Origin: Candidatus Cloacimonadales bacterium
GTDB lineage: Bacteria; Cloacimonadota; Cloacimonadia; Cloacimonadales; DAONDQ01
Length of the DNA stretch: 64,000 nt
Direction: 5' to 3'
NCBI GenBank assembly: GCA_963662275.1
Contig: OY759316.1
Span: 1,152,001 to 1,216,000 of the forward strand
Every line of letters starts with the position of its first letter. The first letter of the stretch is position 1. The translations under genes and the position numbers were made by a program. The notes beneath the pieces are model-generated. The model was not told the DNA's origin. It saw only the letters and a list, made by a program, of their open reading frames with translations, and did not search any database. Below, piece after piece: positions 7,034 through 34,799 of this stretch.

Positions 7034-7996
7034 ATGTTCACATGGTGGGAAAACATCACAAAATGGCTAGTTTACAGCGTTATTGGATTAGCAGATGGCA
7101 ATCGCTGGGCATCCGCATTACAGTTCTTTCTCTTTGATACGATCAAAATATTCATACTGCTCGCGGTTATAATTTTCGCAATTACATATATTCGAAGCTA
7201 CTTTCCGCCCGAAAGGACGAAGGCTTTATTAGCTAAACGGAAAGGCAGCACTTACATTGGGCATATCCTTGCAGCATTGTTGGGGATTGTAACACCTTTC
7301 TGTTCCTGTTCGGCAGTGCCGTTATTCATTGGTTTTGTTGAAGCAGGAATTCCTTTGGGTGTGACCTTCACATATCTTATCTCAGCTCCCATGGTGAATG
7401 AAGTGGCGTTGGGAATGCTGTGGGTTCTTTTCGGCTGGAAGATAGCTTTAATCTACATTGTGAGCGGTGAAGTCATCGCAATTGCGGCAGGAATTGTCCT
7501 CGGTCGCATGAAGTTGGAAATGTACATTGAAGAATCAGTCTTTGAAATGAAAGTCGGTGCAAGCTGTGAATGTACTCCTAAACAATCCGATCGTTTCATA
7601 GATGCCTGGCGCTTTACGATCGATTTGATCAAAAAAATATGGATATATGTAGCCATCGGTATCGGCATCGGCGGTATCATGCACGGCTGGGTTCCAGCGA
7701 ATGCTTTAGCTGTCTATGCGGGTAAAGATAATCCCTTTGCTGTGTTCATTGCTGTCTTGATCGGTATTCCGCTCTATTCCAATGCAGCCGGAGTGATCCC
7801 ATTGGTCAGTGAATTGACCCGTGCCGGTGTGGCGATGGGAACAGCCCTGGCTTTCATGATGGCTGTGACAGCGTTATCACTTCCCGAAGCAATCCTGTTG
7901 AGAAAAGTACTGAAACCAAAATTATTAGCTATCTTCATGGGCATCGTTGGATTGGGGATTGTGTTTACGGGGTATTTGTTCAACTGGATAATGTGA
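7034..7996 (+). CDS. ArsP/DUF318 family permease
   Basis: TPFCSCSAVP, ISAPMVNE and ALSLPE motifs; multiple TM segments. Confidence 0.85.
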   Translation: MFTWWENITKWLVYSVIGLADGNRWASALQFFLFDTIKIFILLAVIIFAITYIRSYFPPERTKALLAKRKGSTYIGHILAALLGIVTPFCSCSAVPLFIGFVEAGIPLGVTFTYLISAPMVNEVALGMLWVLFGWKIALIYIVSGEVIAIAAGIVLGRMKLEMYIEESVFEMKVGASCECTPKQSDRFIDAWRFTIDLIKKIWIYVAIGIGIGGIMHGWVPANALAVYAGKDNPFAVFIAVLIGIPLYSNAAGVIPLVSELTRAGVAMGTALAFMMAVTALSLPEAILLRKVLKPKLLAIFMGIVGLGIVFTGYLFNWIM

Positions 7997-8002
7997 TGCA
8001 AA

Positions 8003-8090
8003 AGGGAACAGGGTACAGCGTACAGGGTACAGGGTACAGAGAGCAGTCTGGTTCCCCTCCCATTTGTAAAGGGAGGGGTTAGGGGAGAGC
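8003..8090. repeat. Heptamer run (agggtac) followed by a cccctccc/gggagggg palindromic element
   Basis: Direct reading; the palindrome resembles 24497-24541. Confidence 0.7.
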
Positions 8091-8194
8091 TAGTTCTGAT
8101 CTGTCGTTTATGAAGTCCATTTGCCCTTTTAGACTGTGTTAATTAATAGCTTTATTTGGGAAATTGAACTCCAAAATCTTATCAGGAGTAAAAG

Positions 8195-8893
8195 ATGATA
8201 GGAAACATATTTAATGCATTGTATACAGCTTTGTATGGCAATATGGCATTAGCTATACTTGCAGCCTTTTTGTGGGGTCTGGCAAGTATCTTGCTCAGCC
8301 CCTGCCATCTATCCGGTATTCCACTGATGGTTGCCATGCTCACTGGAAAGAGAGTGCTGACGGTGAAACAAGCCCTGAAGCTTAGTACTTTATTTGCCAT
8401 AGGTGTATTATTCAGTTTTCTGATTATCGGGATTGTAACTGCATTATTGGGACGCATGATAGGTGATTTGGGCAGCCACGCCAATCTTATCTTTGGCATA
8501 GCCATGTGTATTGGCGGGATCCTTCTATTGGATGTCATTCCATTTGGCTCAGTTTCTCTGGTTTCCAAGGTTAAAATTGATGGCACCAAGCCATTCACCA
8601 TATTCCTGGTTGGTTTGTTATTCGGTATGGCATTGGGTCCATGCGCTTTTGCCTTCATGGCACCGGTATTGACATTAGTTTTCAGTTTGGCAGAAACCAA
8701 ACTCTTGGCAGCAATTGCTATTACTGTTTCCTACGCTATTGGGCATTGTCTGGTCATTGTCTTTGCAGGCACGTCAGTTGGTTTTGTGCAAAAATTATTG
8801 AATTGGAATGAAGGTTCCAAGGGGTTGAGTATGATGAAAAAAGTCTGCGCAGTCCTCGTGATTGCTGCAGGTATATATCTAATCTTTAAATAA
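8195..8893 (+). CDS. ccdA: Cytochrome c biogenesis CcdA family protein
   Basis: SILLSPC and ALGPC cysteine motifs, about six TMs. Confidence 0.8.
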   Translation: MIGNIFNALYTALYGNMALAILAAFLWGLASILLSPCHLSGIPLMVAMLTGKRVLTVKQALKLSTLFAIGVLFSFLIIGIVTALLGRMIGDLGSHANLIFGIAMCIGGILLLDVIPFGSVSLVSKVKIDGTKPFTIFLVGLLFGMALGPCAFAFMAPVLTLVFSLAETKLLAAIAITVSYAIGHCLVIVFAGTSVGFVQKLLNWNEGSKGLSMMKKVCAVLVIAAGIYLIFK

Positions 8894-8904
8894 AGGAGTT
8901 CATT

Positions 8905-9135
8905 ATGATTATCAAAGTATTGGGAAGCGGATGCAGTAAATGCAAGAAACTGGAAGAAAACGTACGCAAGGCTGTTGCAGAGAAAGGTCTGGAAGCAACT
9001 GTAGAAAAAGTCACTGATTTGAAAGTAATCATGAGCTATGGAGTGATGAGTACTCCGGCTCTGATCATCGATGAAAAAGTTGTTTCAGCAGGCAGATTGC
9101 TCAGTGTCTCTGACGTAGTTAAGTTACTAGGATAA
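8905..9135 (+). CDS. Small redox-active disulfide protein (thioredoxin_3 family)
   Basis: IKVLGSGCSKC...YGVMSTPAL. Confidence 0.9.
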   Translation: MIIKVLGSGCSKCKKLEENVRKAVAEKGLEATVEKVTDLKVIMSYGVMSTPALIIDEKVVSAGRLLSVSDVVKLLG

Positions 9136-9145
9136 AGGAGTCAAA

Positions 9146-9535
9146 ATGGCTAAATGTAATTGTGAAGGCGGCTGTGCTTCCAGTACATCGAACAAATCTG
9201 TCTTCGCCTGCTCCGGAGCGAGTAATGTTGGCAAGTTATCATATGACTTGGCAATCGAACTGCATAAGATAGATAAGTACAAAATCAGCTGTGCTATTGG
9301 AGTTGGAGCAGATATAGGTGGATTTATCAACGAAGCTAAATCTGATGATAATACTAATCTCTTGATCGATGGCTGTCCTGTTGGATGCTTGAAGCATATG
9401 TTCGATAATAAGGGCATAACAAATTATGACCATATTGTACTTACTGAAATGGGTATCAAAAAAGATGGTACGTTAAAGTATGATAGTGAAGTATTGCCAA
9501 GATTAATTAATGAAATTGAAGAGATGGGGTTATAA
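9146..9535 (+). CDS. DGC-domain putative zinc-binding protein
   Basis: ACSGASNVG and IDGCPVGC. Confidence 0.85.
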   Translation: MAKCNCEGGCASSTSNKSVFACSGASNVGKLSYDLAIELHKIDKYKISCAIGVGADIGGFINEAKSDDNTNLLIDGCPVGCLKHMFDNKGITNYDHIVLTEMGIKKDGTLKYDSEVLPRLINEIEEMGL

Positions 9536-9937
9536 ATGAAAAAACTAATGATCATATTAAGTGCGATCATGATAGTCGGTTCCTTGTTTTGTGTTACACC
9601 GACAGTTGTTAAAGCTAAAGTTAAAGCGAAAGCAAAGCCTCAGGTTACATTTATCGAACTTGGTTCCGTGAACTGTATCCCCTGTAAGCAAATGCAGCCT
9701 GTGATGAAGGAAATCGAAACAACATACGGAGATAAAGTGCAGGTCGTGTTTTATGATGTCTGGCAGCCGAAAGATAAGGATAAGGCTGCCAAATATAAGA
9801 TTAAACTGATACCTACTCAAGTCTTTCTGGATAAAGATGGTAAGGAATTTTCCAGGCATGAAGGTTTCTTTCCTAAAGAGGAGATCATGAAACTAATCGA
9901 TCCTAAACTTGGTATCAAGAGAACTGCAAAAAAGTAA
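9536..9937 (+). CDS. Exported thioredoxin family protein
   Basis: Signal peptide, CIPC, cis-Pro LIPTQVF, RHEGF. Confidence 0.85.
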   Translation: MKKLMIILSAIMIVGSLFCVTPTVVKAKVKAKAKPQVTFIELGSVNCIPCKQMQPVMKEIETTYGDKVQVVFYDVWQPKDKDKAAKYKIKLIPTQVFLDKDGKEFSRHEGFFPKEEIMKLIDPKLGIKRTAKK

Positions 9938-9959
9938 GATATAACATATAGATGGGTAT

Positions 9960-10340
9960 ATGAAAAGGATATTGATAGTATTGAGTTTGCTCGTTATATT
10001 TCATGCTTTGTATGGTGTAAGCAAAACGGCACCCCAAAATACGAAGCAACCACAAGCTAAACCGCTAATTACATTCGTGGAAATTGGCTCTGTGAATTGC
10101 GTTCCCTGCCGACAGATGAAACCTGTGATGAAAGCAATCGAAGAGAAGTATACCGGTAAAGTGAAAGTTGTGTTCTATGATGTGAATAAACAAAGAGCAA
10201 AAGCAAATGAGTATTATATCAAACTCATACCAACCCAGGTATTTTTAGACGCTAAAGGAAAGGAATTCTGGAGGCATGAGGGCTTCTATCCACAAAAGGA
10301 TATAGAAAAGCTGATCGATGAGAAATTAGCAAAGAAATAA
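9960..10340 (+). CDS. Exported thioredoxin family protein (paralog of the preceding gene)
   Basis: Signal peptide, CVPC, LIPTQVF, RHEGF. Confidence 0.85.
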   Translation: MKRILIVLSLLVIFHALYGVSKTAPQNTKQPQAKPLITFVEIGSVNCVPCRQMKPVMKAIEEKYTGKVKVVFYDVNKQRAKANEYYIKLIPTQVFLDAKGKEFWRHEGFYPQKDIEKLIDEKLAKK

Positions 10341-10353
10341 ACTCGAGGTCATA

Positions 10354-11415
10354 ATGAAGAAGAATATCAAGAAGAACGAAGGGATAGGTTTTTTTGAAAA
10401 GTATTTAACGCTTTGGGTTATCCTATGTATGGCTGCGGGAGTACTAATTGGCAGATTCCTTCCGGGGATTCCCGCTTTCCTGGGACAGTTTGAATATGCC
10501 AAAGTATCTATTCCAATTGCCATCCTGATTTGGCTGATGATCTATCCTATGATGATGAAAGTGGACTTTGCCAGTATCAAAAATGTTGGAAAGAACCCCA
10601 AGGGATTGTATGTGACCTGGGTAACCAATTGGCTGATCAAGCCATTCACGATGTATGCCATTGCCTGGTTTTTCTTCTTTATCGTGTTTAAATCACTCAT
10701 ACCTGCCAATCTTGCGAAGGATTACCTGGCAGGAGCAATCTTACTCGGGGCAGCACCATGTACAGCGATGGTCTTTGTCTGGAGTCATTTGACAAAAGGT
10801 GATCCGGCTTATACAGTTGTACAGGTTGCAACCAATGATTTGATCATCCTGGTTGCTTTTACACCAATCGTAGCATTTTTGCTTGGTGTCAGTGGCATTA
10901 CCATTCCCTGGAATACATTGTTACTTTCTGTATTACTGTTTGTCGTTATTCCTCTTGCCGGTGGTATAATAACACGTATGATTGTTATCAAACGCAATGG
11001 TGAGGAATACTTCAATAAGAGCTTTATTACCAAATTCAATCATGTTACTGTTGGTGGGCTGCTATTGACACTGATCATCATATTTGCATTCCAGGGTGAT
11101 ATCATTCTTCATAATCCGCTGCATATTCTCCTGATCGCAGTGCCATTAACCATTCAAACCTTCCTAATCTTCTTCATAGCCTATCTGGCAAGCAGGAAAC
11201 TGAAACTTGCATACAGCATTGCAGCACCAGCAGGTATGATCGGCGCATCCAATTTCTTTGAATTATCTGTGGCAGTGGCAATTTCCCTGTTTGGACCCAC
11301 TTCTCCTGTTGCTCTGGCGACAATAGTGGGTGTTTTGGTGGAAGTACCTGTCATGCTAACGCTTGTAAAGATAGCGAATAGCACTCAACATTGGTTTCCT
11401 GCACTAAAACAGTAG
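10354..11415 (+). CDS. acr3: ACR3 family arsenite efflux transporter
   Basis: FFEKYLTLWV, GAAPCTAMVFVWS, SNFFELSVAVA, GVLVEVPVML. Confidence 0.95.
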   Translation: MKKNIKKNEGIGFFEKYLTLWVILCMAAGVLIGRFLPGIPAFLGQFEYAKVSIPIAILIWLMIYPMMMKVDFASIKNVGKNPKGLYVTWVTNWLIKPFTMYAIAWFFFFIVFKSLIPANLAKDYLAGAILLGAAPCTAMVFVWSHLTKGDPAYTVVQVATNDLIILVAFTPIVAFLLGVSGITIPWNTLLLSVLLFVVIPLAGGIITRMIVIKRNGEEYFNKSFITKFNHVTVGGLLLTLIIIFAFQGDIILHNPLHILLIAVPLTIQTFLIFFIAYLASRKLKLAYSIAAPAGMIGASNFFELSVAVAISLFGPTSPVALATIVGVLVEVPVMLTLVKIANSTQHWFPALKQ

Positions 11416-11615: not shown

Positions 11616-13476
11616 GAGACTGTTCATGAAGTTATTCATAATATTCAATAAGTTAGAAAGTAGCAAGTTGAAAAAAGTGGTCGAAACGGTCATAATTTAA
11701 CATACCTTCCAGAATTGACAGATAAGCTCTGCTAAGGACACCAAATCACAAGTTAAGCTTTTTGACTAAAATTGAAAAACACGCGATTATAAGTAATGTT
11801 TCGAAGCCGTTTCTGACTAAATGTGTAGTTAAAATCATATAAAATAGTTCTTTACAAGTTTTTTGCTATAGCTTCAATGGCATTTGTTACCTGGTAACAA
11901 AAGGGAGGATATTATGACAAAAAAACACTCCAATTCAAGAAGCGGTAAGTGTTAGTCATGAAAGTAACCAATACCATGTAAGTATTAACGTACCATTTTC
12001 ATTCACTTTGCCTGAGACAACATCAAACCACAAGTTCTTAATAGCGTTTCTACGCTTATTAGTAGGAATAGGCGGAGACAACCTCCTTACACTTCAGCAA
12101 ATAGCTGATCTGTTTAACTACGCAGACCGCAGGAATGTACATAATTTCTGGCAAGAGTTTGAGCAGCATGGTCATGATATCCTGGCATATTTAAGCCGGA
12201 AAGTTGACCTGCTGGAGTGTATTCCTCAGATCGAGAATTTTGTTATCAATAACCTGCTTTTACCTTTAAATGTCATGTATCAGGAGTTCATCAGCCATCA
12301 TGATTTTAAAATGTCCTATACCACTTTCTGCAAATATGCTTCTCAGGTCAATTCTCTGTCTGTAGTTAAGCAAGCTCAGAAGCTTCTTCTGAAAAAGACA
12401 GTAGGCGGTGATGCTGTACATCTGCTGAAACTGCTTGCCGGTCAGCAGAATACACCTGTTATCTGTGACAGACTCCTGGAACAAATGAAGACTGCTAAAG
12501 GCAATACATCCCATAGAACCGCCGATGCAAAGCCGTTCCATAGTCTGGAACGCAAGAACCTGTGTCTGCTGGTACATTACCTGGTTGGAAGCGGTATGAA
12601 CTTCGAGACGATAGCTTTGCTGCTCAACACCTGTAAAGCTACAGTCTCAAATCTCTGGCATGAAATCGCTGACCTGCAGAGCCTGATTCTGAACTCAATC
12701 GGTAAGTGGAGCGGAAAGATCAGCATTGATGAGAAATATGTGAAGATCAAAGGTATTCCGTACTATGTCATCAGTATTGTTGATTTTGTGACTCACATCC
12801 CTCTGTTTTGTGAGTTGTATCCTGACACAAAGAAAGAATCATTCGAAGCATGTTTCAGAACCTTCAGACAGCTCTACAGGAAAGATCCAACCCTGATTGT
12901 CAGTGATGGCAGTAAATCGTTAGCAGTTGCAAGAAAAACAGTGTTTCCAAAAGTCCATTACCAACTCTGTAAGTTCCATAAGATACGAAATCTCTTCAAA
13001 AGAATCAGTCAATGTCATCTCCCTGAAGACAGGGACAAGTTCTTTAAGAAGAGGATTATGAAAGCTTTCCGAAGAGAAACGGCGGGCGGAAGGAAAAAGG
13101 GTATCGCAAGCCTGACAGCTATTACTCCCCCAACCGCCGCCGAATACATCAAAAGCAATATCATTAGTGATTGGAGACACCTCAGCAAAGGTTTGACTTC
13201 CAATGTCTCTGAACGCTGGAACCGCAAAATCAAGAAGGTGACATCCGGTAGATTTGGACTAAAATCTGAAGAAACCACCCGCAACCTTGTGTTTTCGCTT
13301 TGGTTCAAAGAACTGGTCGATAAAGGTCAACCAATCATGCGTCAGGAATCACTTTTAGCAAGTTTAAATATCTCCCGCATATGTCAAGAAAATGTGGATT
13401 GGTCGCACTTAGACCACTTTTTCTCTGTCACTACCAATAAGGCTGCGTAAAATGGAGGTTAATTTTGAACAGTCTC
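11616..13476 (+). mobile_element. Insertion sequence, 1861 bp, DDE type (IS6/ISH6-like, family uncertain)
   Basis: 11-bp terminal inverted repeats GAGACTGTTCA (11616-11626) and TGAACAGTCTC (13466-13476); 8-bp direct repeat CATTAACA at 11608-11615 and 13477-13484. Confidence 0.9.
12008..13450 (+). CDS. DDE transposase; the true start is probably 11914 across a frameshift
   Basis: ISIDEKYVKIKG, IVSDG, YQLCKFH, TSNVSERWN. Confidence 0.85.
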   Translation: MPETTSNHKFLIAFLRLLVGIGGDNLLTLQQIADLFNYADRRNVHNFWQEFEQHGHDILAYLSRKVDLLECIPQIENFVINNLLLPLNVMYQEFISHHDFKMSYTTFCKYASQVNSLSVVKQAQKLLLKKTVGGDAVHLLKLLAGQQNTPVICDRLLEQMKTAKGNTSHRTADAKPFHSLERKNLCLLVHYLVGSGMNFETIALLLNTCKATVSNLWHEIADLQSLILNSIGKWSGKISIDEKYVKIKGIPYYVISIVDFVTHIPLFCELYPDTKKESFEACFRTFRQLYRKDPTLIVSDGSKSLAVARKTVFPKVHYQLCKFHKIRNLFKRISQCHLPEDRDKFFKKRIMKAFRRETAGGRKKGIASLTAITPPTAAEYIKSNIISDWRHLSKGLTSNVSERWNRKIKKVTSGRFGLKSEETTRNLVFSLWFKELVDKGQPIMRQESLLASLNISRICQENVDWSHLDHFFSVTTNKAA

Positions 13477-15102: not shown

Positions 15103-15202
15103 GTGTTAGGTTCTAGGTTCTAGGTGTAAGGGGCAGAGAAGATTTTTTCCACCAAATACCGGAATACTATACTGAATATTAATATTGATTATTACTAAAG
15201 AT

Positions 15203-15229
15203 AAGCCCCGATAACGATCGGGGCTTTTT
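15203..15229 (+). terminator. Intrinsic terminator
   Basis: aagccccgat-aacg-atcggggctt followed by Ts. Confidence 0.7.
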
Positions 15230-15324: not shown

Positions 15325-15389
15325 CTAGCACCTAGCACCTAGCACCTAACACCTAACACCTAGCACCTAGCACCTAGAACCTAAGACCT
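15325..15389. repeat. Heptamer tandem repeat (cctagca/cctaaca)
   Basis: About nine units; inverted counterpart at 15100-15130. Confidence 0.85.
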
Positions 15390-15428
15390 TCTGCTTGACA
15401 AAAACCTCATCATCACTGAAAAGGAATT

Positions 15429-15568
15429 CACGCCGAGTGGCAGGTTCTAAACTACATAGCATGAACTGTCACCGATAGGGTATAACGGGAAACGGTTATA
15501 CCTCCCTTTGGAAAGGCGGGACAGAAATAACAGGACTGTCTTGCCTCCACGCATAAACATGGAGGTAA
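15429..15568 (+). ncRNA. Moco/Tuco-type riboswitch (P3-less) with translational expression platform
   Basis: P1 cgcc/ggcg; P2 gtggcag/ctgtcac with a ctaa..atg receptor-like segment; P4 ggtataac/gttatacc capped by GAAA; cctccctttggaaagg 3' motif as in the E. coli moaA leader; anti-SD ttgcctcca/tggaggtaa; TTGACA at 15395. Confidence 0.8.
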
Positions 15569-15569
15569 C

Positions 15570-16403
15570 ATGAAAAAGCTACTATTACTAACTCTCACAA
15601 TTGCAATGCTCTTTGTGCTTTTCGGATGCAGCGAAAAGGATAAGAGTCCCACGAAGGTTTATGGCTATAAACTGGATCAGTTCATTTCAAAAACAGCAGT
15701 ATTTGATTCTACTACTCATTCAACTTCTATGGCTGATTCAGTCGAAATTCGTAATCTTTACGCTTATGAAATTGTCAGTGCTGATTCTGATCACTGGAGT
15801 CCTCGTACTGCTACTTCTACAGCAGGATATGATTTATCTTGGAACCAGTTTAAGAATGGATTCTATATGCCCTCAGATGCTAATCTGATATCGTGGTTTC
15901 CGAATACTACTCTCCCTGGAGCTTTTAAAGTTAAACGTGTCGGTTTCTTCAGATTATATCGAAAAATAGATGTAACTGCTTCTGACGGTTCAACAAAGAT
16001 GGTCGAATTGAAGAGTTTACCTTTGTTTCCCATCGATAATTGGAATCATGTACAGGAAAATGCGATTAAATTAAGTGATTTAGTACAGGGAATTGCAGCT
16101 TATGATTCACTGAAAATGGTGGGAGTAGATGGTTTTTCACGTACATATAGTTCTGCACAAATTGCGGATGGTTACTACTTGTTAGATTCAGAAGTAACTA
16201 CTTTCCCATTACTTAATGGAACTACACTCACTCCTGGAATATGGAAAGTAAAGAATCTGGCTTATATAGATGTTATAGGTGTCTCTTCACCTCAATCCTT
16301 TACATTCATCAATGCTCTTGAAGAAACAGCAGATATGATCTTTCTGATGCCTTCGAGCATGAATAGTTATACAACAACAGATGTTACCGGACTATCGAAG
16401 TAG
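15570..16403 (+). CDS. Lipoprotein with a degenerate molybdopterin-binding-like C-terminal domain
   Basis: Lipobox LFGC; IKLSDLV...VGVDGF...WKVKNLAYI. Confidence 0.7.
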   Translation: MKKLLLLTLTIAMLFVLFGCSEKDKSPTKVYGYKLDQFISKTAVFDSTTHSTSMADSVEIRNLYAYEIVSADSDHWSPRTATSTAGYDLSWNQFKNGFYMPSDANLISWFPNTTLPGAFKVKRVGFFRLYRKIDVTASDGSTKMVELKSLPLFPIDNWNHVQENAIKLSDLVQGIAAYDSLKMVGVDGFSRTYSSAQIADGYYLLDSEVTTFPLLNGTTLTPGIWKVKNLAYIDVIGVSSPQSFTFINALEETADMIFLMPSSMNSYTTTDVTGLSK

Positions 16404-16413
16404 TAAATCACTC

Positions 16414-16968
16414 ATGTGGGATAAATTCTTTCGCAGGTTCAGTACACATGATCTGCTTTTAATATCGTTATTCAGCGCTTTGGGATTGGCGATTAAACCA
16501 ATCGTCACTCCCTTGGTGCACTTGATCTCCATGCCGCTAATGATTCCAGGCGGTTCTCTTGCTGGCGGGTTTTATATGATGTGGCTGGCTATGGCAGTTG
16601 CTTTAATACCGAAATTTGGAACAGGGTTTCTTGTTGGAATCGTTCAAGCCCTTTCAATTCTGGTCTTAGGTATTACCGGAAGTCATGGGATAGTATCGAT
16701 CATCAGTTATTCTCTCCCAGGTTTATTGATAGACATTTGTGCTCTTATGATTAAACATAGAGCCTGTTTATGGGCACAAATTCTATTCGTGATCATCGCT
16801 AATGTAACAGGTACGATCATGGTGACGCTACTAATCATGCGATTATCAATCATACCGGCTATGATTGCTCTAACCAGTGCTGCTATATCCGGGTGTCTTG
16901 GTGGTTTGCTTTCTTTTTGGTTGATTAAAAAAATGATTGCATATCATTTAGTTACTATTGAGGATTGA
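16414..16968 (+). CDS. ECF transporter S component
   Basis: About 185 aa, six TMs, DLLLISLFSALG start and PKFGTG; ECF A and T genes nearby. Confidence 0.8.
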   Translation: MWDKFFRRFSTHDLLLISLFSALGLAIKPIVTPLVHLISMPLMIPGGSLAGGFYMMWLAMAVALIPKFGTGFLVGIVQALSILVLGITGSHGIVSIISYSLPGLLIDICALMIKHRACLWAQILFVIIANVTGTIMVTLLIMRLSIIPAMIALTSAAISGCLGGLLSFWLIKKMIAYHLVTIED

Positions 16969-16971
16969 ACT

Positions 16972-17940
16972 ATGCGTAATGTTGTTTTAAGTTTGATAAT
17001 AATACTTGCAATGTGTCTGCCATCCATTCTAATTGGCTGGGTAGTAACCAATTCAGATGGAGGTACGAAAGTGTTTACAAATGACAGCTTTTCTAAGCTG
17101 CCTATGATTGAAGTAAAGACAGAACGGGATAAGAAGGGACAGCATCTTTCTGATCAATGGAAAGGATTTCTTCTTCAGGATTGGCTGGAGAAGAATGGTT
17201 ATACTGATTTCGGTGAGATTATTTTGGAATCTTCAGATCATTACCAGGTTCGATTATCTAAAGATGATTTGGTCAAACAGGAAGCATTGATAGCGATATT
17301 CCAAAATAATCAGCCACTTGAGCAAAAGGATATACGCCTCATACTTCCCGCTATGCGAGATATGTACTGGATTACGAACATTTCAAAGATTACACTTCAG
17401 GATAAAGATCAAGCCAACATTCCCAGTTGCATATATTGGGCAGAACCGATTATTCATGCCAAACAGCTAAGAACTGATATCGTACCATTCAAGGATATGA
17501 AGGGTTATGCTTTTACGGATTTACTTGAACCCAATATTCCCTTCCCTGATGGCGATGTCTTAGTGATGGGCAAAGATGGAGTCAGGCATCTATTGGATTA
17601 TCGCAAATTCTTAAAAAAGGCAGTACTGGAAAAGACAGAAAGCGAAGGTTATTGGCTCAAAAGTCCGGATATGCCAGCAGGAATGTGGATTAAGAACATC
17701 GCTTATGTTCAATTCAGTAAAACAGGTATACTTTTCAAAGAGGCTTTTCAGAAGAAATCATTACAGGATTTAGCTGATATGCTTCTCTGGAAGAATGTGA
17801 CTGCCTTCATACCTATTGAAAAAGATACACCGGCTAATGAGATCAAGTCATGGGAAAACAAGGAATTAAAATTACAAATGATAAACTTGTCGAACGCTCT
17901 AATTACTCATTATCCATCGATTCAACTGAAGGTCAAATGA
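16972..17940 (+). CDS. Exported protein with two oxidoreductase-molybdopterin-binding-like repeats
   Basis: WKGFLLQDWL..SSDHY..RLILP..YWITNISKI and KGYAFTDLL..GKDG..MWIKNIAYV. Confidence 0.7.
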   Translation: MRNVVLSLIIILAMCLPSILIGWVVTNSDGGTKVFTNDSFSKLPMIEVKTERDKKGQHLSDQWKGFLLQDWLEKNGYTDFGEIILESSDHYQVRLSKDDLVKQEALIAIFQNNQPLEQKDIRLILPAMRDMYWITNISKITLQDKDQANIPSCIYWAEPIIHAKQLRTDIVPFKDMKGYAFTDLLEPNIPFPDGDVLVMGKDGVRHLLDYRKFLKKAVLEKTESEGYWLKSPDMPAGMWIKNIAYVQFSKTGILFKEAFQKKSLQDLADMLLWKNVTAFIPIEKDTPANEIKSWENKELKLQMINLSNALITHYPSIQLKVK

Positions 17941-18398
17941 AGAAATTAGTTGTGATTATTCTTATTACTTTCGCATTGCTCTTGTTGTGGTCGAAACCAT
18001 TGCCTTTGTATATAGATGGTTCTCAGAATCCTATGATCATTCATAATACGAATCTTGGTGACTTTGTTCAGACTCAAATACCTTTCGTGAAAGCTGCTCT
18101 TATCGTAGGTTCTGATTCAATAGCTGTTGGAGTAACTGCAGATGAATTCGGAATGATAAGTTTAAAGTATGAAAATAATGAGTGGTTTGTAGAAAACGAT
18201 TCCCTGCCTTCACCAGCCAATATCAGGGACATTTCTAAAATCTATTTGTATAATCCATTTGCTTCAGTTACATCATCCAGTGATTCAAATCGTTTTCAAT
18301 TCACGGACATAAGGAATAATGCAGATTTTCTCGGACAGGCAGAAAAGAATGGTTATATTATCTGGAAATATCGTATTCATCAAGGAGTTAATAAATGA
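17937..18398 (+). CDS. Exported hypothetical protein, weakly similar to the same domain
   Basis: ATGA overlap with the upstream gene; signal peptide; LIVGSD...NIRDISKIYL. Confidence 0.6.
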   Translation: MKKLVVIILITFALLLLWSKPLPLYIDGSQNPMIIHNTNLGDFVQTQIPFVKAALIVGSDSIAVGVTADEFGMISLKYENNEWFVENDSLPSPANIRDISKIYLYNPFASVTSSSDSNRFQFTDIRNNADFLGQAEKNGYIIWKYRIHQGVNK

Positions 18399-18835
18399 AA
18401 CCAATTCCCATATTACTTATCGGCCTTGTATTAATCCTGACAGCATTAGAGCTATGTTCCAAACAAATCATACCAAGTACAGGAATTATTCAAATCGTCA
18501 CCGAAAAGAAAACATACAATATAGCTGATCATATCTTTCAAAGACAAATGACCCAAAAAGTCAAAGCTAAACGAGGTTCGGTATGGCATGGAGTGTATCT
18601 TGCCAAATTCTTTACGGAGAATGGATTCGATGTTAAAAAATATCAGCAATGCACTTTGGTGGCAAAAGATGGAATGCGGATCACGATTCCGATGGATGAA
18701 ATTACCGATAACCAGGCATTTATTACTTTTGTGAAAGATAAGAAAAGCGGTAAGTATGATTTGAAACTTATCATGCTGCAGGACTCTTTTGAGCAGCGTT
18801 GGCTGAAATATATTGTTCAAATCATACTGGAATAA
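18395..18835 (+). CDS. Exported molybdopterin-binding-like domain protein
   Basis: WHGVYLAKFF..LVAKDG..LKLIM..RWLKYIVQI. Confidence 0.7.
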   Translation: MKPIPILLIGLVLILTALELCSKQIIPSTGIIQIVTEKKTYNIADHIFQRQMTQKVKAKRGSVWHGVYLAKFFTENGFDVKKYQQCTLVAKDGMRITIPMDEITDNQAFITFVKDKKSGKYDLKLIMLQDSFEQRWLKYIVQIILE

Positions 18836-19530
18836 GAGTGTCATCATCTTCTTCACTTGAACTGATTGATTTATCTTTCCAATATCACAAAGAATATGAC
18901 TGGTTATTCAGAAATCTGACATTTCAATTTGAAAAGGGCAGCATTACTGCAATAACCGGTCCCAATGGCAGTGGTAAAACAACGTTACTTTATACAATCT
19001 GCGGAATCATTCCGCTGTTGTTTAAAGGAAATCTGCAAGGTCAGGTGAATTACTCTGATAAGGACATTTCCAAATATTCTTTACCCCAACTTTCGAAATG
19101 GATGAATATACTGCTGCAAGACCCAAATTATCAATTAGTGTTTCCAATTGTTGAACAGGAAATTGCATTTGGAGCTGAGAACTTGTGTTTACCTGTTTCT
19201 CAAATCGAGAAAAGAATTTGTAGAAACCTCAATCTCCTGGGAATCGAGGATTTACGCTTTGCCCACACCGCTGAATTATCCTATGGTCAAAAAAAGATGG
19301 TTTCGCTTGCATCCTTATTAGTAATGGAAAGCCAGATTCTGATCCTGGATGAACCTTCAGCCGGATTGGATGAATATGCATGTGAACTGCTAAAGACTCT
19401 GCTGCTGAATTTATCCGCTGAGGGAAGAATCATTATCTTTGCAGATCATAATTCCGAATTAGTGCAAATTGCTCATCACCGGATTACTATGCCGTATTTT
19501 TTGAACAAGGTCGATACTGATGATCTATAA
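18799..19530 (+). CDS. ECF transporter ATPase (EcfA/CbiO-like); start uncertain
   Basis: GPNGSGKT, QDP..VEQEIAFGAEN, LSYGQ, LDEP. Confidence 0.9.
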   Translation: MAEIYCSNHTGIRVSSSSSLELIDLSFQYHKEYDWLFRNLTFQFEKGSITAITGPNGSGKTTLLYTICGIIPLLFKGNLQGQVNYSDKDISKYSLPQLSKWMNILLQDPNYQLVFPIVEQEIAFGAENLCLPVSQIEKRICRNLNLLGIEDLRFAHTAELSYGQKKMVSLASLLVMESQILILDEPSAGLDEYACELLKTLLLNLSAEGRIIIFADHNSELVQIAHHRITMPYFLNKVDTDDL

Positions 19531-20179
19531 TCTGCAAAATATCAGTTATGGCTATGTTCCTGGAAAGCTTATCCTGGATGAAATAAGCATGATTATCATG
19601 GAGAACGAGATCACTCTACTCACAGGAATCAATGGTTCGGGGAAAACAACTTTCTGCAGATTATTAACAGGTCTCATATCTGCTTATCAAGGAATAATCT
19701 CCTTGGAAAATAGTGATTTAAAGAACTATCAACCATATCAGATTGCTGAAAAAGTACTATATCTCAAACAGGAAGGTATTCAAAACATCGTTGCAGCTAC
19801 ACCTGGTGAAGACCTAATGATTCGACAAAGAAAATTCGTTCAGAAGGATAATACAACTTTTGAAAAAGCCAGGGAAGAGGCTCTTAAAAGTGTTGATCTT
19901 GTTCATCAAAAGAATATTCCAACCTGGGAAATGAGCGCAGGGCAGGTAAAACGGATTGGTCTTGCTACCTTATCGCTATTCACTTCATATTATTGGATAC
20001 TGGATGAGCCATATCTTGGTCTGGATACTAATTTGATAATGAAACTAAAGAAACAGCTTTCTGAGAGAAAAGAACAAGGATATGGAGCGATGATCGTTAA
20101 TCATTTGGATATTTCAGATGATTTTCAATACGATGCACACTATCATTTGAAAAATGGAAAGTTGATTAAAGTATGTTGA
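19520..20179 (+). CDS. Second ECF transporter ATPase
   Basis: GINGSGKT, MSAGQ, LDEP. Confidence 0.85.
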   Translation: MIYNLQNISYGYVPGKLILDEISMIIMENEITLLTGINGSGKTTFCRLLTGLISAYQGIISLENSDLKNYQPYQIAEKVLYLKQEGIQNIVAATPGEDLMIRQRKFVQKDNTTFEKAREEALKSVDLVHQKNIPTWEMSAGQVKRIGLATLSLFTSYYWILDEPYLGLDTNLIMKLKKQLSERKEQGYGAMIVNHLDISDDFQYDAHYHLKNGKLIKVC

Positions 20180-22098
20180 ATAACAACCTGTTTTTTCCGT
20201 TAATCTGTATTTTAACGATTTCATCACTTTATGCTGATACTATTGCAGGTAGAGATACGATAGCGAAGGATAGTTTACAAATCAGGCATTACACATTGGA
20301 TGCGCTGCGTGTTATTGGTGAGAAACCAAGTGAAACGATTGGGTCAGTCAATATTACTAATATTGATTATGCAAATCAACCCGGTCTGCAAAATGTGAAA
20401 GATGCTTTAACAAACTTACCCGGTATCAGTATGACTGTTGGTTCAAAGGATGAAAGTAATTTACGTATCCGGGGTTTTCGAAAGAACGAAGTGAAAATAT
20501 TGTTGGATGGAAGACCTCTCAATGCAGGATATTTCGGGAATGTTAATCTCCAAAACCTGCCAGTTTCAGGTATCAGTGAAATCCAGGTATTGAAAGGACC
20601 AGTTTCTTCGATGTATGGCAGTAATACTTTGGGTGGTGTTGTTAATTTAATTACCAGGGATCCTTCAACAAGAAAATGGTTCAAATTGGGCATGAGCGTT
20701 AAAAGGAATAATACAAATCATTTCGAGTTATCTACTTCTCATCGATTCGAAAATTGGAACTATTGGTTGTTTGCTTCTCTTGAGCACAGCGATGGCTTTC
20801 TTCTTCCAAAAGACTTTCAAGCAACTAATTCAGAGAATGGTGGTGTTCGTGATAATGCCAGCAAAACCCAAGAGCTTGTGGAAGTTAAAAGCACATGCAA
20901 TATCACTGATTTTCACATGATCACTTTTACCGCAGGGGTTGCCAGTATTCCTACAAAGTATTTGCCATCATCCATTTATGAAACTAAATATCGACTTTAT
21001 AAAGACTATCAACGCCTGGAAGGCACAATTCGCAGCAATCTTCAGCTTTCACCTGGTTGGAAGCTGGATTCCATGCTCTATTTGGATGGTGGAAAGGACA
21101 CATATCAAGAGTTTAATGACCCCAATTTCCATCATATGGCAATGGATTCTGATATGAAGAATTTCACTATTGGATTTACACACCGCGCTAATTTGCAGAT
21201 GCAGGATGGAAGCGAGTTGAGCATTGGATATCGGGGTGAAAGGCAATTCAGCAATCGGAAGGATAATGGAAACTACCCAACCTGGACAGATCATTCCACA
21301 ATGCTGCATAATCTCTTTTCCCAGGTGGAATGGAAAGTATCCCAGCCATTGACTGTTACTGGCAGTGCTGGGGCTTCCTATTTCTCAAAAGATGTTGAAA
21401 AAAGTAATGCCCTGTTATTCGAACCTTCCCTGGGGGTTTACTATGAGTTTCCAAATCACGCTTCATTATCTTTGGCTGCAGGTAGAAATACGGCTTTTGG
21501 AACGATGAGACAGTTATTTAGTGTAGAGAATGGCAACATCAATTTACGTCCCCAGGTTAGCATGAAATATGAAATTACTGGTAAAAAGCCATTCCTGCTG
21601 AATACTGCAAATGGACTTCTAAGCTTGAGTCTTTATTTGAATGATGTGAAAGACTTAATCGATATTCATGGAAATACCTATCAAAATATCTATAAAGTGC
21701 GTTCTTACGGTGGTGAATCGGATTTGGAAATAGCACCCTATTCCTGGTGGAATATGACTTATTCATATTGCTATCTCGATTATGCCGATTTAAGCAGCTA
21801 TCGTTTGACTGAAAGCCCCAGAAATACGGTTGGATTGAACTGGACTTTTCTTTTACCCGTAAGAACGAAAGTCACTGTTTCTTCAAATTGGGAAGATATG
21901 CGTTTCAGTGAAGATTCAAATTTCCAATATCATCATTTGGACTCATACTGGGTACATAATCTCGCGTTGAAAAAGGAATGGCGTGATTTTTCAATAACCT
22001 TTGGCTTAGAGAACTTCACAGATACTAATTACCAGGAAGAATACGGCTTCCCTGCACAGGGAATCAACTTCTGCTTTGGTTTAGAGAAGGAATTCTGA
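20173..22098 (+). CDS. TonB-dependent receptor
   Basis: Plug motifs IRGF..ILLDGRP, VLKGPVSSMYGSNTLGGVVNLIT; ENFTD..Y and terminal F. Confidence 0.92.
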   Translation: MLNNNLFFPLICILTISSLYADTIAGRDTIAKDSLQIRHYTLDALRVIGEKPSETIGSVNITNIDYANQPGLQNVKDALTNLPGISMTVGSKDESNLRIRGFRKNEVKILLDGRPLNAGYFGNVNLQNLPVSGISEIQVLKGPVSSMYGSNTLGGVVNLITRDPSTRKWFKLGMSVKRNNTNHFELSTSHRFENWNYWLFASLEHSDGFLLPKDFQATNSENGGVRDNASKTQELVEVKSTCNITDFHMITFTAGVASIPTKYLPSSIYETKYRLYKDYQRLEGTIRSNLQLSPGWKLDSMLYLDGGKDTYQEFNDPNFHHMAMDSDMKNFTIGFTHRANLQMQDGSELSIGYRGERQFSNRKDNGNYPTWTDHSTMLHNLFSQVEWKVSQPLTVTGSAGASYFSKDVEKSNALLFEPSLGVYYEFPNHASLSLAAGRNTAFGTMRQLFSVENGNINLRPQVSMKYEITGKKPFLLNTANGLLSLSLYLNDVKDLIDIHGNTYQNIYKVRSYGGESDLEIAPYSWWNMTYSYCYLDYADLSSYRLTESPRNTVGLNWTFLLPVRTKVTVSSNWEDMRFSEDSNFQYHHLDSYWVHNLALKKEWRDFSITFGLENFTDTNYQEEYGFPAQGINFCFGLEKEF

Positions 22099-22859
22099 TG
22101 CAGGAAGAAAAGGACAACCGGCTAAACCCGGAGCTACGACTAAATACCAGGACGAAAATACTGATGGTTGTCACCCTCTCTTTTCTTGCCCTACTATACA
22201 GCCAGGTTTGGATACTTGCCATATTGACCTGTATTTCCTTACTCCTTTACATCATTGGAAAAAGGCGATCTTCTTCTAATCATTCTAAAAGCAATTTCAA
22301 ATCTCTATTGATATTAATATTCAGTCTTATGTTCATTCAAATCCTATTCCGACCTGCAGGCACGTTATTATGGCATTGGGGAGTTGTTCGCATTTCAATG
22401 GAAGGAATCAACTATGGCGTTGCTGCTTCTTTCAGAATACTGATCATCTTCCTTTCTGCTGGATACTTGCTGAGTATTTCCTATTATGAATATCTAATGG
22501 CGTTCCGATCCTGGAGACTCCCGTATGAACTATCTTTCCTCATGGCTTCCGTGCTGCAATTCCTGCCTATTCTAAGAAGGGAATTTCAATTAGTGGGAGA
22601 AGCACTCACTTTACGCGGTATAGAATTGGGGAGATTACCTTTATTGAAGAGATTAAATGCCTACCAGGAGCTTGTTTTCCCAATACTGGCTAGAGCAGTT
22701 TCTTCACTAAAGTTTCGTGTAATCTCTCTCGAAATGAGAGGTTTCCGACTTTCTAATAAACGTACTGCATTGCATGAAGATCATTTGAAGATTATTGATT
22801 ACATGGTGCAGGGCGGTCTTGTATTTATCATCACAGTCTGTTTTTACCTGAAGATTTGA
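22098..22859 (+). CDS. ECF transporter transmembrane T component (EcfT/CbiQ-like)
   Basis: LNTRTK start, QFLPIL, LRG and LEMRGF motifs. Confidence 0.88.
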   Translation: MQEEKDNRLNPELRLNTRTKILMVVTLSFLALLYSQVWILAILTCISLLLYIIGKRRSSSNHSKSNFKSLLILIFSLMFIQILFRPAGTLLWHWGVVRISMEGINYGVAASFRILIIFLSAGYLLSISYYEYLMAFRSWRLPYELSFLMASVLQFLPILRREFQLVGEALTLRGIELGRLPLLKRLNAYQELVFPILARAVSSLKFRVISLEMRGFRLSNKRTALHEDHLKIIDYMVQGGLVFIITVCFYLKI

Positions 22860-33670: not shown

Positions 33671-34474
33671 TTACTCAATTTCTGCAGTTCTCAAAATACG
33701 GACAAGTTCCGACATCCCCTCCTTAAAATGACCAGAACTGAGATCAAACCATTGCAACTTACTCAAAACATGCTCTTCATGATTTGGTAGCAACTCCATA
33801 ATCTCGTTAAGATCAACTAGCGATACTAGCAAAATACTCTGTCGTTGTGATTTTTGTATCGTTCCAATTGAGTCGACTATTTCCTTAAGACAAAATGGGT
33901 TTTCAAAAAATGCTCTGTTGATCAGTAATAAAACGTAGCCATTTTGGATGAAATATTCTAAAGTCATTGCAATTGAGTTAATCCAATCAGATTTTGTATG
34001 ATTATCGTGATTGTAATAGATACTAAAACCTTCATGAGAGAGGTAATCAATTATTTGATGGGCTATTTCGATATCTTGATTTGAGTAGGATAGAAATATG
34101 GTTGCACGTTTTGATAAGCGAGTGAGTTTGTATTGTTCGAACTGAAGACCTCTTTCTAGATTAATTGTTTCAACAACCTTTCCTTCCTTTTCCATCGACT
34201 TTACTAAGTTCATTTCTCTCATAACAGACTTAGAACTCTGAGCATCTGGACTATCACAGATTAAAAACCATTCACGAGCTCTGATTTCACGTTCAATAAG
34301 TTTCCAAAGCAATTCATCATCTGATTCTGTATCCTCCATGCATTTGAGGTAGAATAATACAGGGTTGTGACCTAAACTTTCAAGTTCGTTTCTTATCTCA
34401 CGAACCTTCTCAATATCCTTATTTGAATGAGAAACGAATATCCAAGCTCCTGAACCATTGTTTGGTGTATTCAT
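33671..34474 (-). CDS. Tandem TIR-TIR domain protein
   Basis: WIFVSHSNKD...VMRE and IFLSYSNQD...FCLKE. Confidence 0.8.
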   Translation of the reverse strand: MNTPNNGSGAWIFVSHSNKDIEKVREIRNELESLGHNPVLFYLKCMEDTESDDELLWKLIEREIRAREWFLICDSPDAQSSKSVMREMNLVKSMEKEGKVVETINLERGLQFEQYKLTRLSKRATIFLSYSNQDIEIAHQIIDYLSHEGFSIYYNHDNHTKSDWINSIAMTLEYFIQNGYVLLLINRAFFENPFCLKEIVDSIGTIQKSQRQSILLVSLVDLNEIMELLPNHEEHVLSKLQWFDLSSGHFKEGMSELVRILRTAEIE

Positions 34475-34520
34475 TTCAAATCTCCAATATCTTCACTAAA
34501 ACATATCCTGCCTAACTATC

Positions 34521-34775
34521 TTACAAAAAAAAAGGACGGCATTTGTTGATTTCATCCAGGCATAGCTTCAGTGTTTCTTTGCGAGTATTCTGTTCTTCAT
34601 TAATCCCCCAGCGCAAATCTACTTCAGTCAATTCCACATGTCGTTCTCTGCAGAAGCTACGCAGTTCCGGCCAACAGTGGCTCATGAGTTCATTACGCTC
34701 TTCCATCATATCACGGAAGGTGGAAGAGACAAAGATACGGATACTACGGTTATCGGATTTCAGGTTATCTGGCAT
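34521..34775 (-). pseudogene. Truncated DUF4062-domain gene
   Basis: IRIFVSSTFRDMMEER..VDLRWG..CLDEINKCRPFF, then a stop after a T9 run; the LLGxRYG motif is missing. Confidence 0.75.
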
Positions 34776-34799
34776 ATTGCCCTCCTTCAATGAATCGTA

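Follow-up and report, generated by a model that had tools for sequence, protein, structure and literature searches.

A 64,000-nucleotide stretch of the genome of a Candidatus Cloacimonadales bacterium (GenBank assembly GCA_963662275.1, contig OY759316.1, positions 1,152,001 to 1,216,000 of the forward strand; hereafter the window) carries nine tightly packed genes preceded by a riboswitch of the molybdenum/tungsten cofactor (Moco/Tuco) family. We read this operon as a two-membrane system that would salvage ready-formed Mo/W-pyranopterin cofactor and that the riboswitch would switch off at high cofactor levels, and we give this reading a probability of roughly 0.7. It draws on the family of the controlling RNA, the families and folds of the proteins, the order of the genes, cofactor biosynthesis genes that were searched for and not detected, and phyletic and regulon patterns, all of them established by computation. 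We also lean towards viewing the operon as the first dedicated bacterial system for uptake of the intact Mo/W pyranopterin cofactor, in which a relay of PruR-like carriers feeds an energy-coupling factor (ECF) transporter provided with extracytoplasmic binding proteins.

The operon is made of nine open reading frames on the + strand (15570-22859), whose junctions are either overlaps or gaps of 4 bases at most. The gene order is p1, ECF S, p3, p4, p5, ATPase A, ATPase A', TonB-dependent receptor and ECF T. Upstream, a terminator-like hairpin (15203-15226) ends a gene of the UDP-glucose-dehydrogenase type. A previous interpretation made from the letters of the DNA alone (the sequence-only reading) had described nine packed, co-oriented genes behind a leader with the Moco RNA motif, and cmscan, Pfam and NCBIfam bore this description out; its start, 15429, falls 10 nucleotides within the aptamer, and at its other limit, 22859, it stops together with the T gene, at the stop codon. 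The features of the operon and its leader are:

15419..15534, + strand: Moco/Tuco riboswitch aptamer of the P3-less type (RF01055, cmscan)
15510..15548, + strand: helix predicted to act as anti-sequestor, formed between 15536-15545 and the 3' strand of P1 (15515-15524), in rivalry with aptamer closure
15542..15567, + strand: predicted Shine-Dalgarno (SD) sequestor hairpin; CCUCC pairs with the SD sequence GGAGG (15561-15565), and the ATG is at 15570
15570..16403, + strand: lipoprotein p1, with lipobox Cys20, homologous to p3; putative partner of the receptor in cofactor capture, at the surface or in the periplasm
16381..16968, + strand: ECF S component (PF09819, 40 bits)
16972..17940, + strand: p3 (PF00174, 31.2 bits against a cut-off of 24)
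17937..18398, + strand: p4, with a hydrophobic N-terminus and no Pfam family
18395..18835, + strand: p5, aligned by hhalign to the N-terminal domain of p3
18799..19530, + strand: ECF ATPase A (ABC_tran, 92.5 bits)
19520..20179, + strand: ECF ATPase A' (ABC_tran, 74.7 bits)
20173..22098, + strand: TonB-dependent receptor (Plug, 81.2 bits, and OMP_b-brl_3, 37.5 bits)
22098..22859, + strand: ECF T component (CbiQ, PF02361, 69.4 bits)

The leader matches RF01055, the Moco/Tuco riboswitch family, with 67.7 bits against a gathering score of 36 (E = 3.6e-14). The match spans the full model (positions 1-135), with the columns of the P3 stem deleted in the alignment. When the entire 64-kb window was scanned with cmscan, RF01055 was the sole Rfam family above its gathering score; the leader thus belongs where the sequence-only reading had placed it, and to no other family. 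The window's own genome, a single contig of 4,378,784 bases that is 99.97% complete, holds this one copy. Absence of P3 in Moco RNAs has been found to correlate with tungsten-cofactor metabolism (Regulski et al. 2008, PMC2408646). Under a strict core pattern, the motif-to-motif spacing is 67-76 nucleotides in 29 of the 31 RF01055 copies matched and 68 in the window, a rough proxy which suggests that the other copies share the compact P3-less form.

Fold predictions for the leader point to a switch acting on translation. The unconstrained minimum free energy fold of 15419-15590 has -50.4 kcal/mol (z = -4.2), and in it the 3' strand of P1 pairs with 15536-15545 while GGAGG (15561-15565) is left open. 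If P1 is forced to close, as it would in the ligand-bound aptamer, the hairpin at 15542-15567 masks the SD sequence; the stretch 15535-15585, which holds this hairpin, is predicted to fold alone at -12.3 kcal/mol. As the SD sequence is masked upon P1 closure and open in the free fold, binding of the cofactor is predicted to repress translation of the operon. The same logic of a sequestered ribosome-binding site has been described for P3-less riboswitches of Eubacterium limosum (PMC11725836). No terminator-like site was found between the aptamer and the first ATG (15570). A scan for sigma-70 promoters gave 33 candidates, not above shuffled sequences (26.7 +/- 5), and we do not claim a promoter. 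Four sequencing runs, of DNA or of unknown type, were found to contain this stretch, and no RNA run was listed among them.

The transporter encoded by the operon has the layout of a dedicated (group I) ECF system, with S, T and two ATP-binding cassette (ABC) ATPases within one operon. The S gene likely starts at 16414, giving a product of 184 amino acids; its homologues, titled 'ECF transporter S component', have lengths of 176-190 amino acids, come almost all from metagenome-assembled genomes (MAGs) of Cloacimonadota, and show 21 invariant columns among 31 sequences. The best NCBIfam families of the ATPases are of the ECF/CbiO type (for A, cbiO and ECF_ATPase_1 with E values around 1e-40), under the curated cut-offs. 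The receptor has an N-terminal plug and a C-terminal outer-membrane beta-barrel and is small, of the size of BtuB (641 amino acids); its best NCBIfam matches, also under cut-offs, are the TonB-hemin and TonB-B12 types. Co-encoded S, T and two ATPases are likewise found in CbiMNQO, NikMNQO, BioMNY and the YkoEDC-type systems of PF09819, the family to which S belongs. To our knowledge, however, ECF transporters are defined by the absence of a separate extracytoplasmic solute-binding protein, and here one to three exported proteins with a pterin-binding fold are conserved beside S. Presence of a TonB-dependent receptor in the operon and a predicted new substrate are further differences from the group I systems.

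Membership of S in PF09819 permits a conservative view: S might keep the thiamine/hydroxymethylpyrimidine specificity of YkoE-type proteins, its link to the Moco RNA being secondary. Several homologues do bear the JGI name 'ABC-type thiamin/hydroxymethylpyrimidine transport system permease subunit'. However, the NCBIfam scan assigned S to no family, its partner proteins have a pterin-binding fold, and neither the window nor the homologous loci scanned contained a thiamine pyrophosphate (TPP) riboswitch, only RF01055; no homologous operon under a B12, TPP or other riboswitch was found in those loci. Thiamine uptake is, in our opinion, scarcely credible.

A new result of this analysis is that p3, p5 and p1 are built from pterin-binding domains of the PruR/SUOX type, without the cysteine that ligates Mo. 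The evidence is most direct for p3, a membrane-anchored protein of 322 amino acids with two such domains in tandem. It reaches the Pfam cut-off for Oxidored_molyb (PF00174), the molybdopterin-binding domain of sulfite-oxidase-type enzymes. An AlphaFold (AF2) model based on an alignment of 26 orthologues from the fetched loci (alignment A1) had a mean pLDDT of 89, and its N-terminal domain matched PruR (7kom) in Foldseek with E = 2.7e-8 and a TM score of 0.75; VIA-align gave Z = 15.9 and a root-mean-square deviation of 2.2 A across 120 residues. When the same domain was compared with sulfite oxidases and YedY, their Moco domains yielded Z values of 11-15.6 (VIA-align), with 13-15.6 for the SUOX enzymes. 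The p5 family, with one exported PruR-like domain and invariant D130, W136 and K138, aligned with the N-terminal domain of p3 over 130 columns (hhalign, 99%, E = 5.6e-18), while its profile produced matches only at chance level against PDB sequences. The p1 family aligned with both domains of the p3 family over 229 columns (hhalign, 93%, E = 3e-7). The protein encoded in the window has 277 amino acids and two PruR-like domains (AF2 pLDDT 88.6), and its lipobox Cys20 is invariant among 23 homologues. Kinship between p1 and p3 is based on hhalign, since a Foldseek search with the p1 model was too weak, yielding nothing at E <= 0.001 and PruR (7kp2) on top with E = 0.035. For p4, the hhalign match to p3 was weak (16.7% probability, E = 0.0015); that it contains a PruR-like domain is not established, and we do not claim it.

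PruR, a periplasmic protein whose binding of pterin is known from crystal structures, has a cysteine-less SUOX fold in which a tyrosine and a tryptophan sandwich the pterin ring and an asparagine forms hydrogen bonds with it (PMC11194511). Like PruR (7kos, 7kom, 7kp2, 7rkb), p3 is exported, without conserved cysteine, has a degenerate SUOX fold and shows a tyrosine aligned with the pterin-stacking one. D89, Y91 and W133 are invariant in the 26 sequences of the p3 family, and in a hidden Markov model (HMM) alignment with PruR of V. cholerae D89 and Y91 line up with its N-x-Y motif, with Asp at the position of the hydrogen-bonding Asn. The invariant W133 may correspond to the tryptophan of the PruR sandwich. 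Another difference is a long beta-hairpin (46-67), truncated in PruR, that appears to be kept in the p3 model. The context differs as well: PruR is a single domain of about 170 amino acids that acts in a biofilm pathway with DcpA, a diguanylate cyclase/phosphodiesterase, as operon partner, while p3 and p1 are multi-domain proteins, membrane-anchored or lipidated, encoded in a transporter operon under a Moco riboswitch. Because of these transporter neighbours and the two-domain make-up of p3 and p1, we consider them relatives of the PruR fold rather than members of a PruR-DcpA system, and the role that we propose for p3, p5 and p1 is that of carriers, not of signal receptors.

A different interpretation of the same proteins would be that p1, p3 and p5 are true periplasmic molybdoenzymes (SUOX/MsrP-like) and that the ECF transporter and the receptor carry an unrelated vitamin. 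The Oxidored_molyb match of p3 and the NCBI naming of its family as 'molybdopterin-dependent oxidoreductase' are in line with this idea, and Moco RNAs do precede genes of Moco-using enzymes (PMC2408646). Yet the 26 sequences of the p3 family have no invariant or near-invariant cysteine that could ligate molybdenum, and the HMM match of p3 to SorA covers chain residues 123-225 only, starting past the Mo-binding region. The N-termini of p3, p4 and p5 are hydrophobic, and no twin-arginine (RR) motif, the Tat export signal of periplasmic enzymes of this family that leave the cytoplasm with their cofactor in place, is present in the first 35 residues of p1, p3, p4 or p5. No heme or electron-transfer partner is encoded within the window operon; p3 and S are neighbors in 31 of the 38 loci described below, and S-A-A'-T operons that lack p3 are under the riboswitch as well. 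Enzymatic function is, then, very improbable: on sequence grounds p1, p3 and p5 are not enzymes, and the oxidoreductase label on the homologues of p3 is a systematic annotation error. Lack of a twin-arginine signal also implies that p1, p3, p4 and p5 are not exported already loaded with cofactor, and that they meet their ligand outside the cytoplasm.

The window's own genome encodes users of the pterin cofactor. One is a tungsten-type aldehyde oxidoreductase (AOR) of 720 amino acids (AFOR_N, 161 bits; AFOR_C, 327 bits), whose gene lies directly behind a 4Fe-4S ferredoxin gene. A second protein of the AOR family (634 amino acids) is GAPOR-like. In addition, three enzymes of the xanthine dehydrogenase (XDH) family are encoded with their FAD and 2Fe-2S partners in catabolic clusters of purine type (G000:C1:1770001-1790000, locus L133, and 3916001-3930000, locus L134). 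These clusters also hold amidohydrolases, AllG/AllH oxamate carbamoyltransferase subunits, and a protein that combines pyridine-nucleotide-disulphide oxidoreductase and Fer4_20 domains and is reminiscent of YgfK; a group II intron reverse transcriptase (RVT_1 and GIIM) is found at L133:1673-3040. A PF00384 match elsewhere in the genome (37.8 bits) was not counted as a Moco enzyme: it is a GltD/NuoG-like fusion, and no Molydop_binding domain was detected genome-wide.

MoaC, the C-terminal domain of MoaA (Mob_synth_C), MoaE and MoeA_N all went undetected in family searches of this genome, MoaD, MoeB, MobA, MocA and XdhC being outside the families searched. The same searches were positive in 11 of 14 control genomes. 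The lone MoCF_biosynth match is CinA. No oxyanion-binding protein of the ModA, TupA or WtpA type was found in the genome either, the only SBP_bac_11/PBP_like_2 matches being a binding protein of thiamine/iron type and PstS beside PstC; within the operon, Pfam found neither family. The sequence-only reading had suggested examining whether carriers of the operon have Mo/W enzymes and lack the genes for the first steps of cofactor synthesis, and such is the situation here, with moaA, moaC, moaE and moeA not found.

The same relationship was examined across 151 genomes of the phylum, the window's own genome included; these are related genomes, and the counts are descriptive and carry no statistical test. 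The S component was found in 109/151 genomes, RF01055 in 104/150, the AOR N-terminal domain in 107/151 and MoaC in 12/151, and MoeA_N occurs in the same 12 genomes as MoaC. Among the 97 genomes with AOR and without MoaC, S was detected in 92, distributed across 34 genera. In contrast, only 2 of the 12 genomes with MoaC carry S, and AOR, MoaC and S are all missing from 27 genomes. Two families illustrate the extremes: in family f12 MoaC is present in 6/6 genomes and S in 0/6, and none of the 9 genomes of family f6 has S, the riboswitch, AOR or MoaC. As for the outer-membrane components, p1 was found in 81 genomes and an orthologue of the receptor (E <= 1e-50) in 82/151, with both in 78; p1 lies directly upstream of the receptor for 51 of 83 receptor matches, and further up in a long operon for 22.

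These patterns bear on two alternative cargoes. One is an unfinished pterin (metal-free molybdopterin, cyclic pyranopterin monophosphate (cPMP), monapterin or neopterin) that cytoplasmic steps would complete or use. In favor of this view, PruR, the solved relative of the carrier domains, binds small pterins other than Moco, and its cleft is described as too short for Moco (PMC11194511, PMC13259868). However, cPMP would require MoaD and MoaE, and metal-free molybdopterin would require MoeA and a supply of molybdate or tungstate; MoaE, MoeA_N and proteins of the ModA/TupA type were not found in the complete own genome, and MoeA_N is present in only 12 of the 151 surveyed. The class of the controlling RNA is, furthermore, tied to Moco/Tuco and not to folate or other pterins. 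We judge an unfinished pterin doubtful, though worth keeping in mind.

The other alternative is a metal species (tungstate, molybdate, a metallophore complex or iron for tungstoenzymes rich in Fe-S clusters), in which case the riboswitch would coordinate the supply of metal with cofactor status. ECF systems are known to import nickel and cobalt, TonB-dependent receptors import metal chelates, and the Pfam title of PF09819 is that of a 'cobalt' permease component. The P3-less riboswitches of E. limosum include some that stand in front of tupABC and of two ABC systems with iron-transport annotations (PMC11725836). Against a metal cargo, W/Mo oxyanions would be of no use for making the cofactor, as no MoeA or molybdopterin synthesis genes were found; three or four of the operon proteins have a pterin-binding fold, not one that binds metals or siderophores; and the transporter tracks the genomes with AOR and without MoaC instead of the cofactor makers. 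Uptake of a metal species therefore seems to us quite unlikely.

Thirty-eight loci around riboswitch-adjacent S genes were fetched, several of them cut by contig ends, and they repeatedly show the arrangement p1 - S - p3 - p4 - p5 - A - A' - receptor - T. While p3 is found next to S in most loci, as stated above, p5 is present in 23/38, the receptor orthologue in 22/38 and p1 in 21/38. The lipoprotein p1 and the receptor are a separable outer-membrane module, one of two into which the system can be divided. G003, a complete genome, has the riboswitch ahead of p1 and the receptor (L106) and S-p3-A-T elsewhere (L105). Genomes G012 and G149 possess two divergent riboswitches, one of which drives p1 (with the receptor) and the other S-p3-A-A'-T.

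Examination of the genes behind the riboswitch in the phylum was based on the 150 listed copies of RF01055, taking 600 nucleotides as the limit for a copy to be considered upstream of p1. Downstream of 78/150 listed copies lies p1 (78 of the 85 p1 matches in the phylum have the riboswitch), and S lies downstream of 22/150. An AOR gene follows at least 11/150, a lower bound obtained with 54 of the AOR matches. The remaining 39/150 are elsewhere, and 20 of these were fetched (L110-L129). In 18 of the 20, where RF01055 is a second copy within genomes that also have one elsewhere, the first gene encodes an NAD(P)-type aldehyde dehydrogenase of PF00171 (e.g., L110:4376-6001 and L111:437-1984), an assignment made by Pfam for eight and by phmmer for all 18. 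This enzyme looks like a stand-in for AOR that needs no pterin cofactor; the window's own genome gave no tblastn match (E <= 1e-20) to such an aldehyde dehydrogenase taken from a relative. In the MoaC-containing genomes G054, G127 and G108, judging by coordinates only, moeA and moaC follow a copy of RF01055 on its own strand at a distance of a few kb. Altogether, the RNA regulates the transport modules, a user of the cofactor, what appears to be its cofactor-independent substitute and, where present, biosynthesis. This is the pattern expected if the level of cofactor in the cell follows supply. B12 riboswitches show the same kind of regulon, including B12-independent isozymes such as MetE, and the aldehyde dehydrogenase that would replace AOR in relatives of the window is the analogous case.

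A second lineage that carries the inner-membrane part of the system was found by a p3 profile search of 1.84 billion representatives, which returned 984 relatives at E <= 1e-3 and 96 at E <= 1e-30. One multi-domain form related to p3 is named from a Bacillota MAG, and its relatives lie on seventeen metagenome contigs. Their operon begins with an FMN_bind gene, followed by one for a lipoprotein that resembles p3 (PF00174, 85.9 bits) and by S, a long p4, p5, A, A' and T, with neither receptor nor p1. Of the 15 loci scanned, 14 have RF01055 ahead of the operon in the same orientation, and the exception starts at a contig end. Two of these loci have T-box leaders nearby, which fits a Firmicutes-like origin. 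One locus (L150) has a second riboswitch and a gene for a 614-amino-acid AOR directly after the T gene. The conserved neighborhood that the sequence-only reading had proposed to look for thus extends from the 38 loci of the phylum to another lineage. The first gene behind the riboswitch in this lineage encodes the small exported FMN_bind (PF04205) protein (L135:236-757, L147:778-1305), whose role may be to hold the pterin in its reduced state as a redox partner outside the cytoplasm.

The homologues of p4 range from 146 to 456 amino acids, and the p4 of the window (153 amino acids) is a short form that is shared with its congener. In 16/38 loci, the p4 position holds a protein of 416-491 amino acids with a C-terminal type I phosphodiesterase/nucleotide pyrophosphatase domain. 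PF01663 was found in 8/8 long forms tested, and long exported forms (416-504 amino acids) occur across L068-L104 and L135-L151. When the pyrophosphatase domain was searched by tblastn in the window's own genome, no match was obtained at 1e-3. Such an accessory domain fits the chemistry of the cofactor, and it is a candidate enzyme for the removal of the nucleotide from molybdopterin dinucleotides ahead of import.

What the system would carry, in which chemical form, by which order of hand-over and with which polarity of the switch is what we infer from the above patterns, as follows:

(i). At the cell surface or outer membrane, the p1 lipoprotein would capture cofactor released by other microbes and hand it to the TonB-dependent receptor.

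(ii). In the periplasm, the Sec-exported, PruR-like p3 and p5, and perhaps p4, would hold and protect the labile cofactor. In many relatives, the nucleotide pyrophosphatase domain on p4 may produce plain molybdopterin from the guanine or cytosine dinucleotide.

(iii). The PruR-like carriers would then pass the cofactor to S, and the ECF complex S-A-A'-T would move it into the cytoplasm, where it would serve enzymes of the AOR and XDH families.

(iv). The P3-less riboswitch would sense the intracellular cofactor. Upon binding, P1 would close, the CCUCC/GGAGG hairpin would mask the ribosome-binding site, and the importer would be turned off.

Since searches detected no MoeA and no importer of oxyanions, the metal is probably already part of the cargo, which would not be a precursor; metal-loaded molybdopterin is the most likely form. 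The sequence-only reading had proposed import of 'an intact pterin cofactor or precursor' by way of periplasmic carriers. Import of the intact cofactor stands as a supported interpretation, and its precursor half is argued against by the missing MoeA and oxyanion-binding proteins. As for the carriers, p1 and two or more of the three exported proteins form one PruR-like family.

Several observations weigh against the salvage reading. The surveyed genomes are related, and their counts overstate independence. S was not detected in 5 of the genomes with AOR and without MoaC, all of them fragmented, with 86-96% completeness; the two cofactor-making genomes with S hold the transport system as well as the means to dispense with it; and 15 genomes have S without AOR or MoaC, in a survey that covered the XDH family in the own genome only. 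In genus g48 of family f13 (e.g., G053, G055, G078, G100, G102 and G144), a homologue of S with around 46-48% identity is accompanied by neither RF01055 nor p1, and a single weak AOR match was found in the genus (G062); a second specificity of the S family is conceivable here, as is the use of other cofactor enzymes by these genomes. The S-p3-A-T locus of G003 has no riboswitch. Nor does the S gene, 49% identical, of an Oscillospiraceae MAG (L006), which stands alone with no p3 neighbor and was the only locus returned when genome contigs were searched with a single S protein. The own genome has a single, P3-less riboswitch for W-type (AOR) and Mo-type (XDH) enzymes alike, and the metal of the cargo may be either Mo or W. 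Free Moco is chemically labile. The short pocket described for PruR, mentioned above, is a further objection, and so is the finding that riboswitch control alone does not identify the cargo, given the iron-annotated transporters behind P3-less riboswitches in E. limosum.

A close parallel among known systems is uptake of B12, with its cobalamin riboswitches, the receptor BtuB, the surface lipoprotein BtuG in Bacteroides, and BtuFCD. Both combine a cofactor-sensing riboswitch, a TonB-dependent receptor, a lipoprotein and an ATP-driven inner-membrane importer. Unlike in the B12 case, the RNA is RF01055, the predicted cargo is a pyranopterin, the lipoprotein is PruR-like and not a beta-propeller, and an ECF transporter with additional exported binding proteins takes the place of BtuFCD. 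The transporters ModABC, TupABC and WtpABC belong to the same physiological area, and some of their members are under Moco RNAs, which are known upstream of molybdate/tungstate importer genes (PMC2408646, PMC11725836). They are, however, type I ABC importers of oxyanions with a periplasmic binding protein; none such was found in the window's own genome, nor was MoeA to make use of the oxyanion. Acquisition of externally made, probably protein-bound, Moco from the diet has been reported in the nematodes Caenorhabditis elegans and Haemonchus contortus, the latter of which lacks Moco synthesis (PMC7849362, PMC9793310, PMC7619442). These are animals, and the abstracts give their machinery for Moco transport as unknown, while concrete bacterial machinery is proposed here.

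The statement in the sequence-only reading that no bacterial Moco/Wco importer has been characterised agrees with the literature covered, in which subscription journals are mostly outside: we found no paper that ties a Moco riboswitch to ECF or TonB-dependent transport or that describes bacterial uptake of Moco. A 2026 review states that how pterins cross membranes is unknown (PMC13259868). The riboswitch-regulon survey by Sun et al. 2013 confines its coenzyme-uptake classes to B12, thiamin, riboflavin, queuosine and folate, with no Moco transporter (PMC3766115), and a term search of PMC13144720 gave no mention of Moco scavenging or transport. A preprint on Cloacimonadota gives the distribution of AOR and does not contain 'molybd', 'tungsten', 'cofactor' or 'ECF' (10.1101/2021.10.08.463351). 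A Geotalea paper considered as a precedent (PMC13119186) was discarded as irrelevant, as it concerns CbiMNQO and B12.

If the salvage reading is true, the presence of tungsten aldehyde oxidoreductases without cofactor genes in a phylum of anaerobic-digester bacteria would be explained, and most of the sampled phylum would be auxotrophic (139/151 genomes without MoaC/MoeA, 97 of these with AOR). The pterin cofactor of Mo/W enzymes is generally viewed as made by each cell for itself, because it is very labile; Moco/Tuco would instead join the cross-fed cofactors, as a traded 'vitamin' of anaerobic communities. The inner-membrane module would serve the Bacillota-like lineage in the same way, and the PruR fold would gain a second role, as a carrier. 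The binding proteins, the transporter and the sensor RNA could be cloned for studying or delivering an unstable cofactor, a matter of interest for Moco deficiency.

Other features of the window can be summarized as follows. Upstream of the riboswitch, two arrays of tandem heptamers flank the terminator hairpin at 15203-15226: TAGGTTC, repeated 2.7 times (15107-15125), and CTAGCAC, repeated 8.4 times (15325-15383); by eye, the arrays look roughly like inverted versions of each other. A gene for a MULE/Mutator-family transposase (12008-13450) lies two genes upstream of the operon. Further upstream, 7034-11415 on the + strand contains genes for an ArsP_1-type permease, a DsbD_TM protein, a DGC-domain protein, two thioredoxins and an SBF-family transporter, and looks like a unit for thiol/redox or metalloid handling. 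Three adjacent genes on the - strand at 33671-41401 encode a TIR_2 protein (267 amino acids), a RyR-domain protein (918 amino acids) and a STAND-like protein with DUF4062, AAA_16 and TPR (1282 amino acids), a trio that looks like a defence or signalling island.

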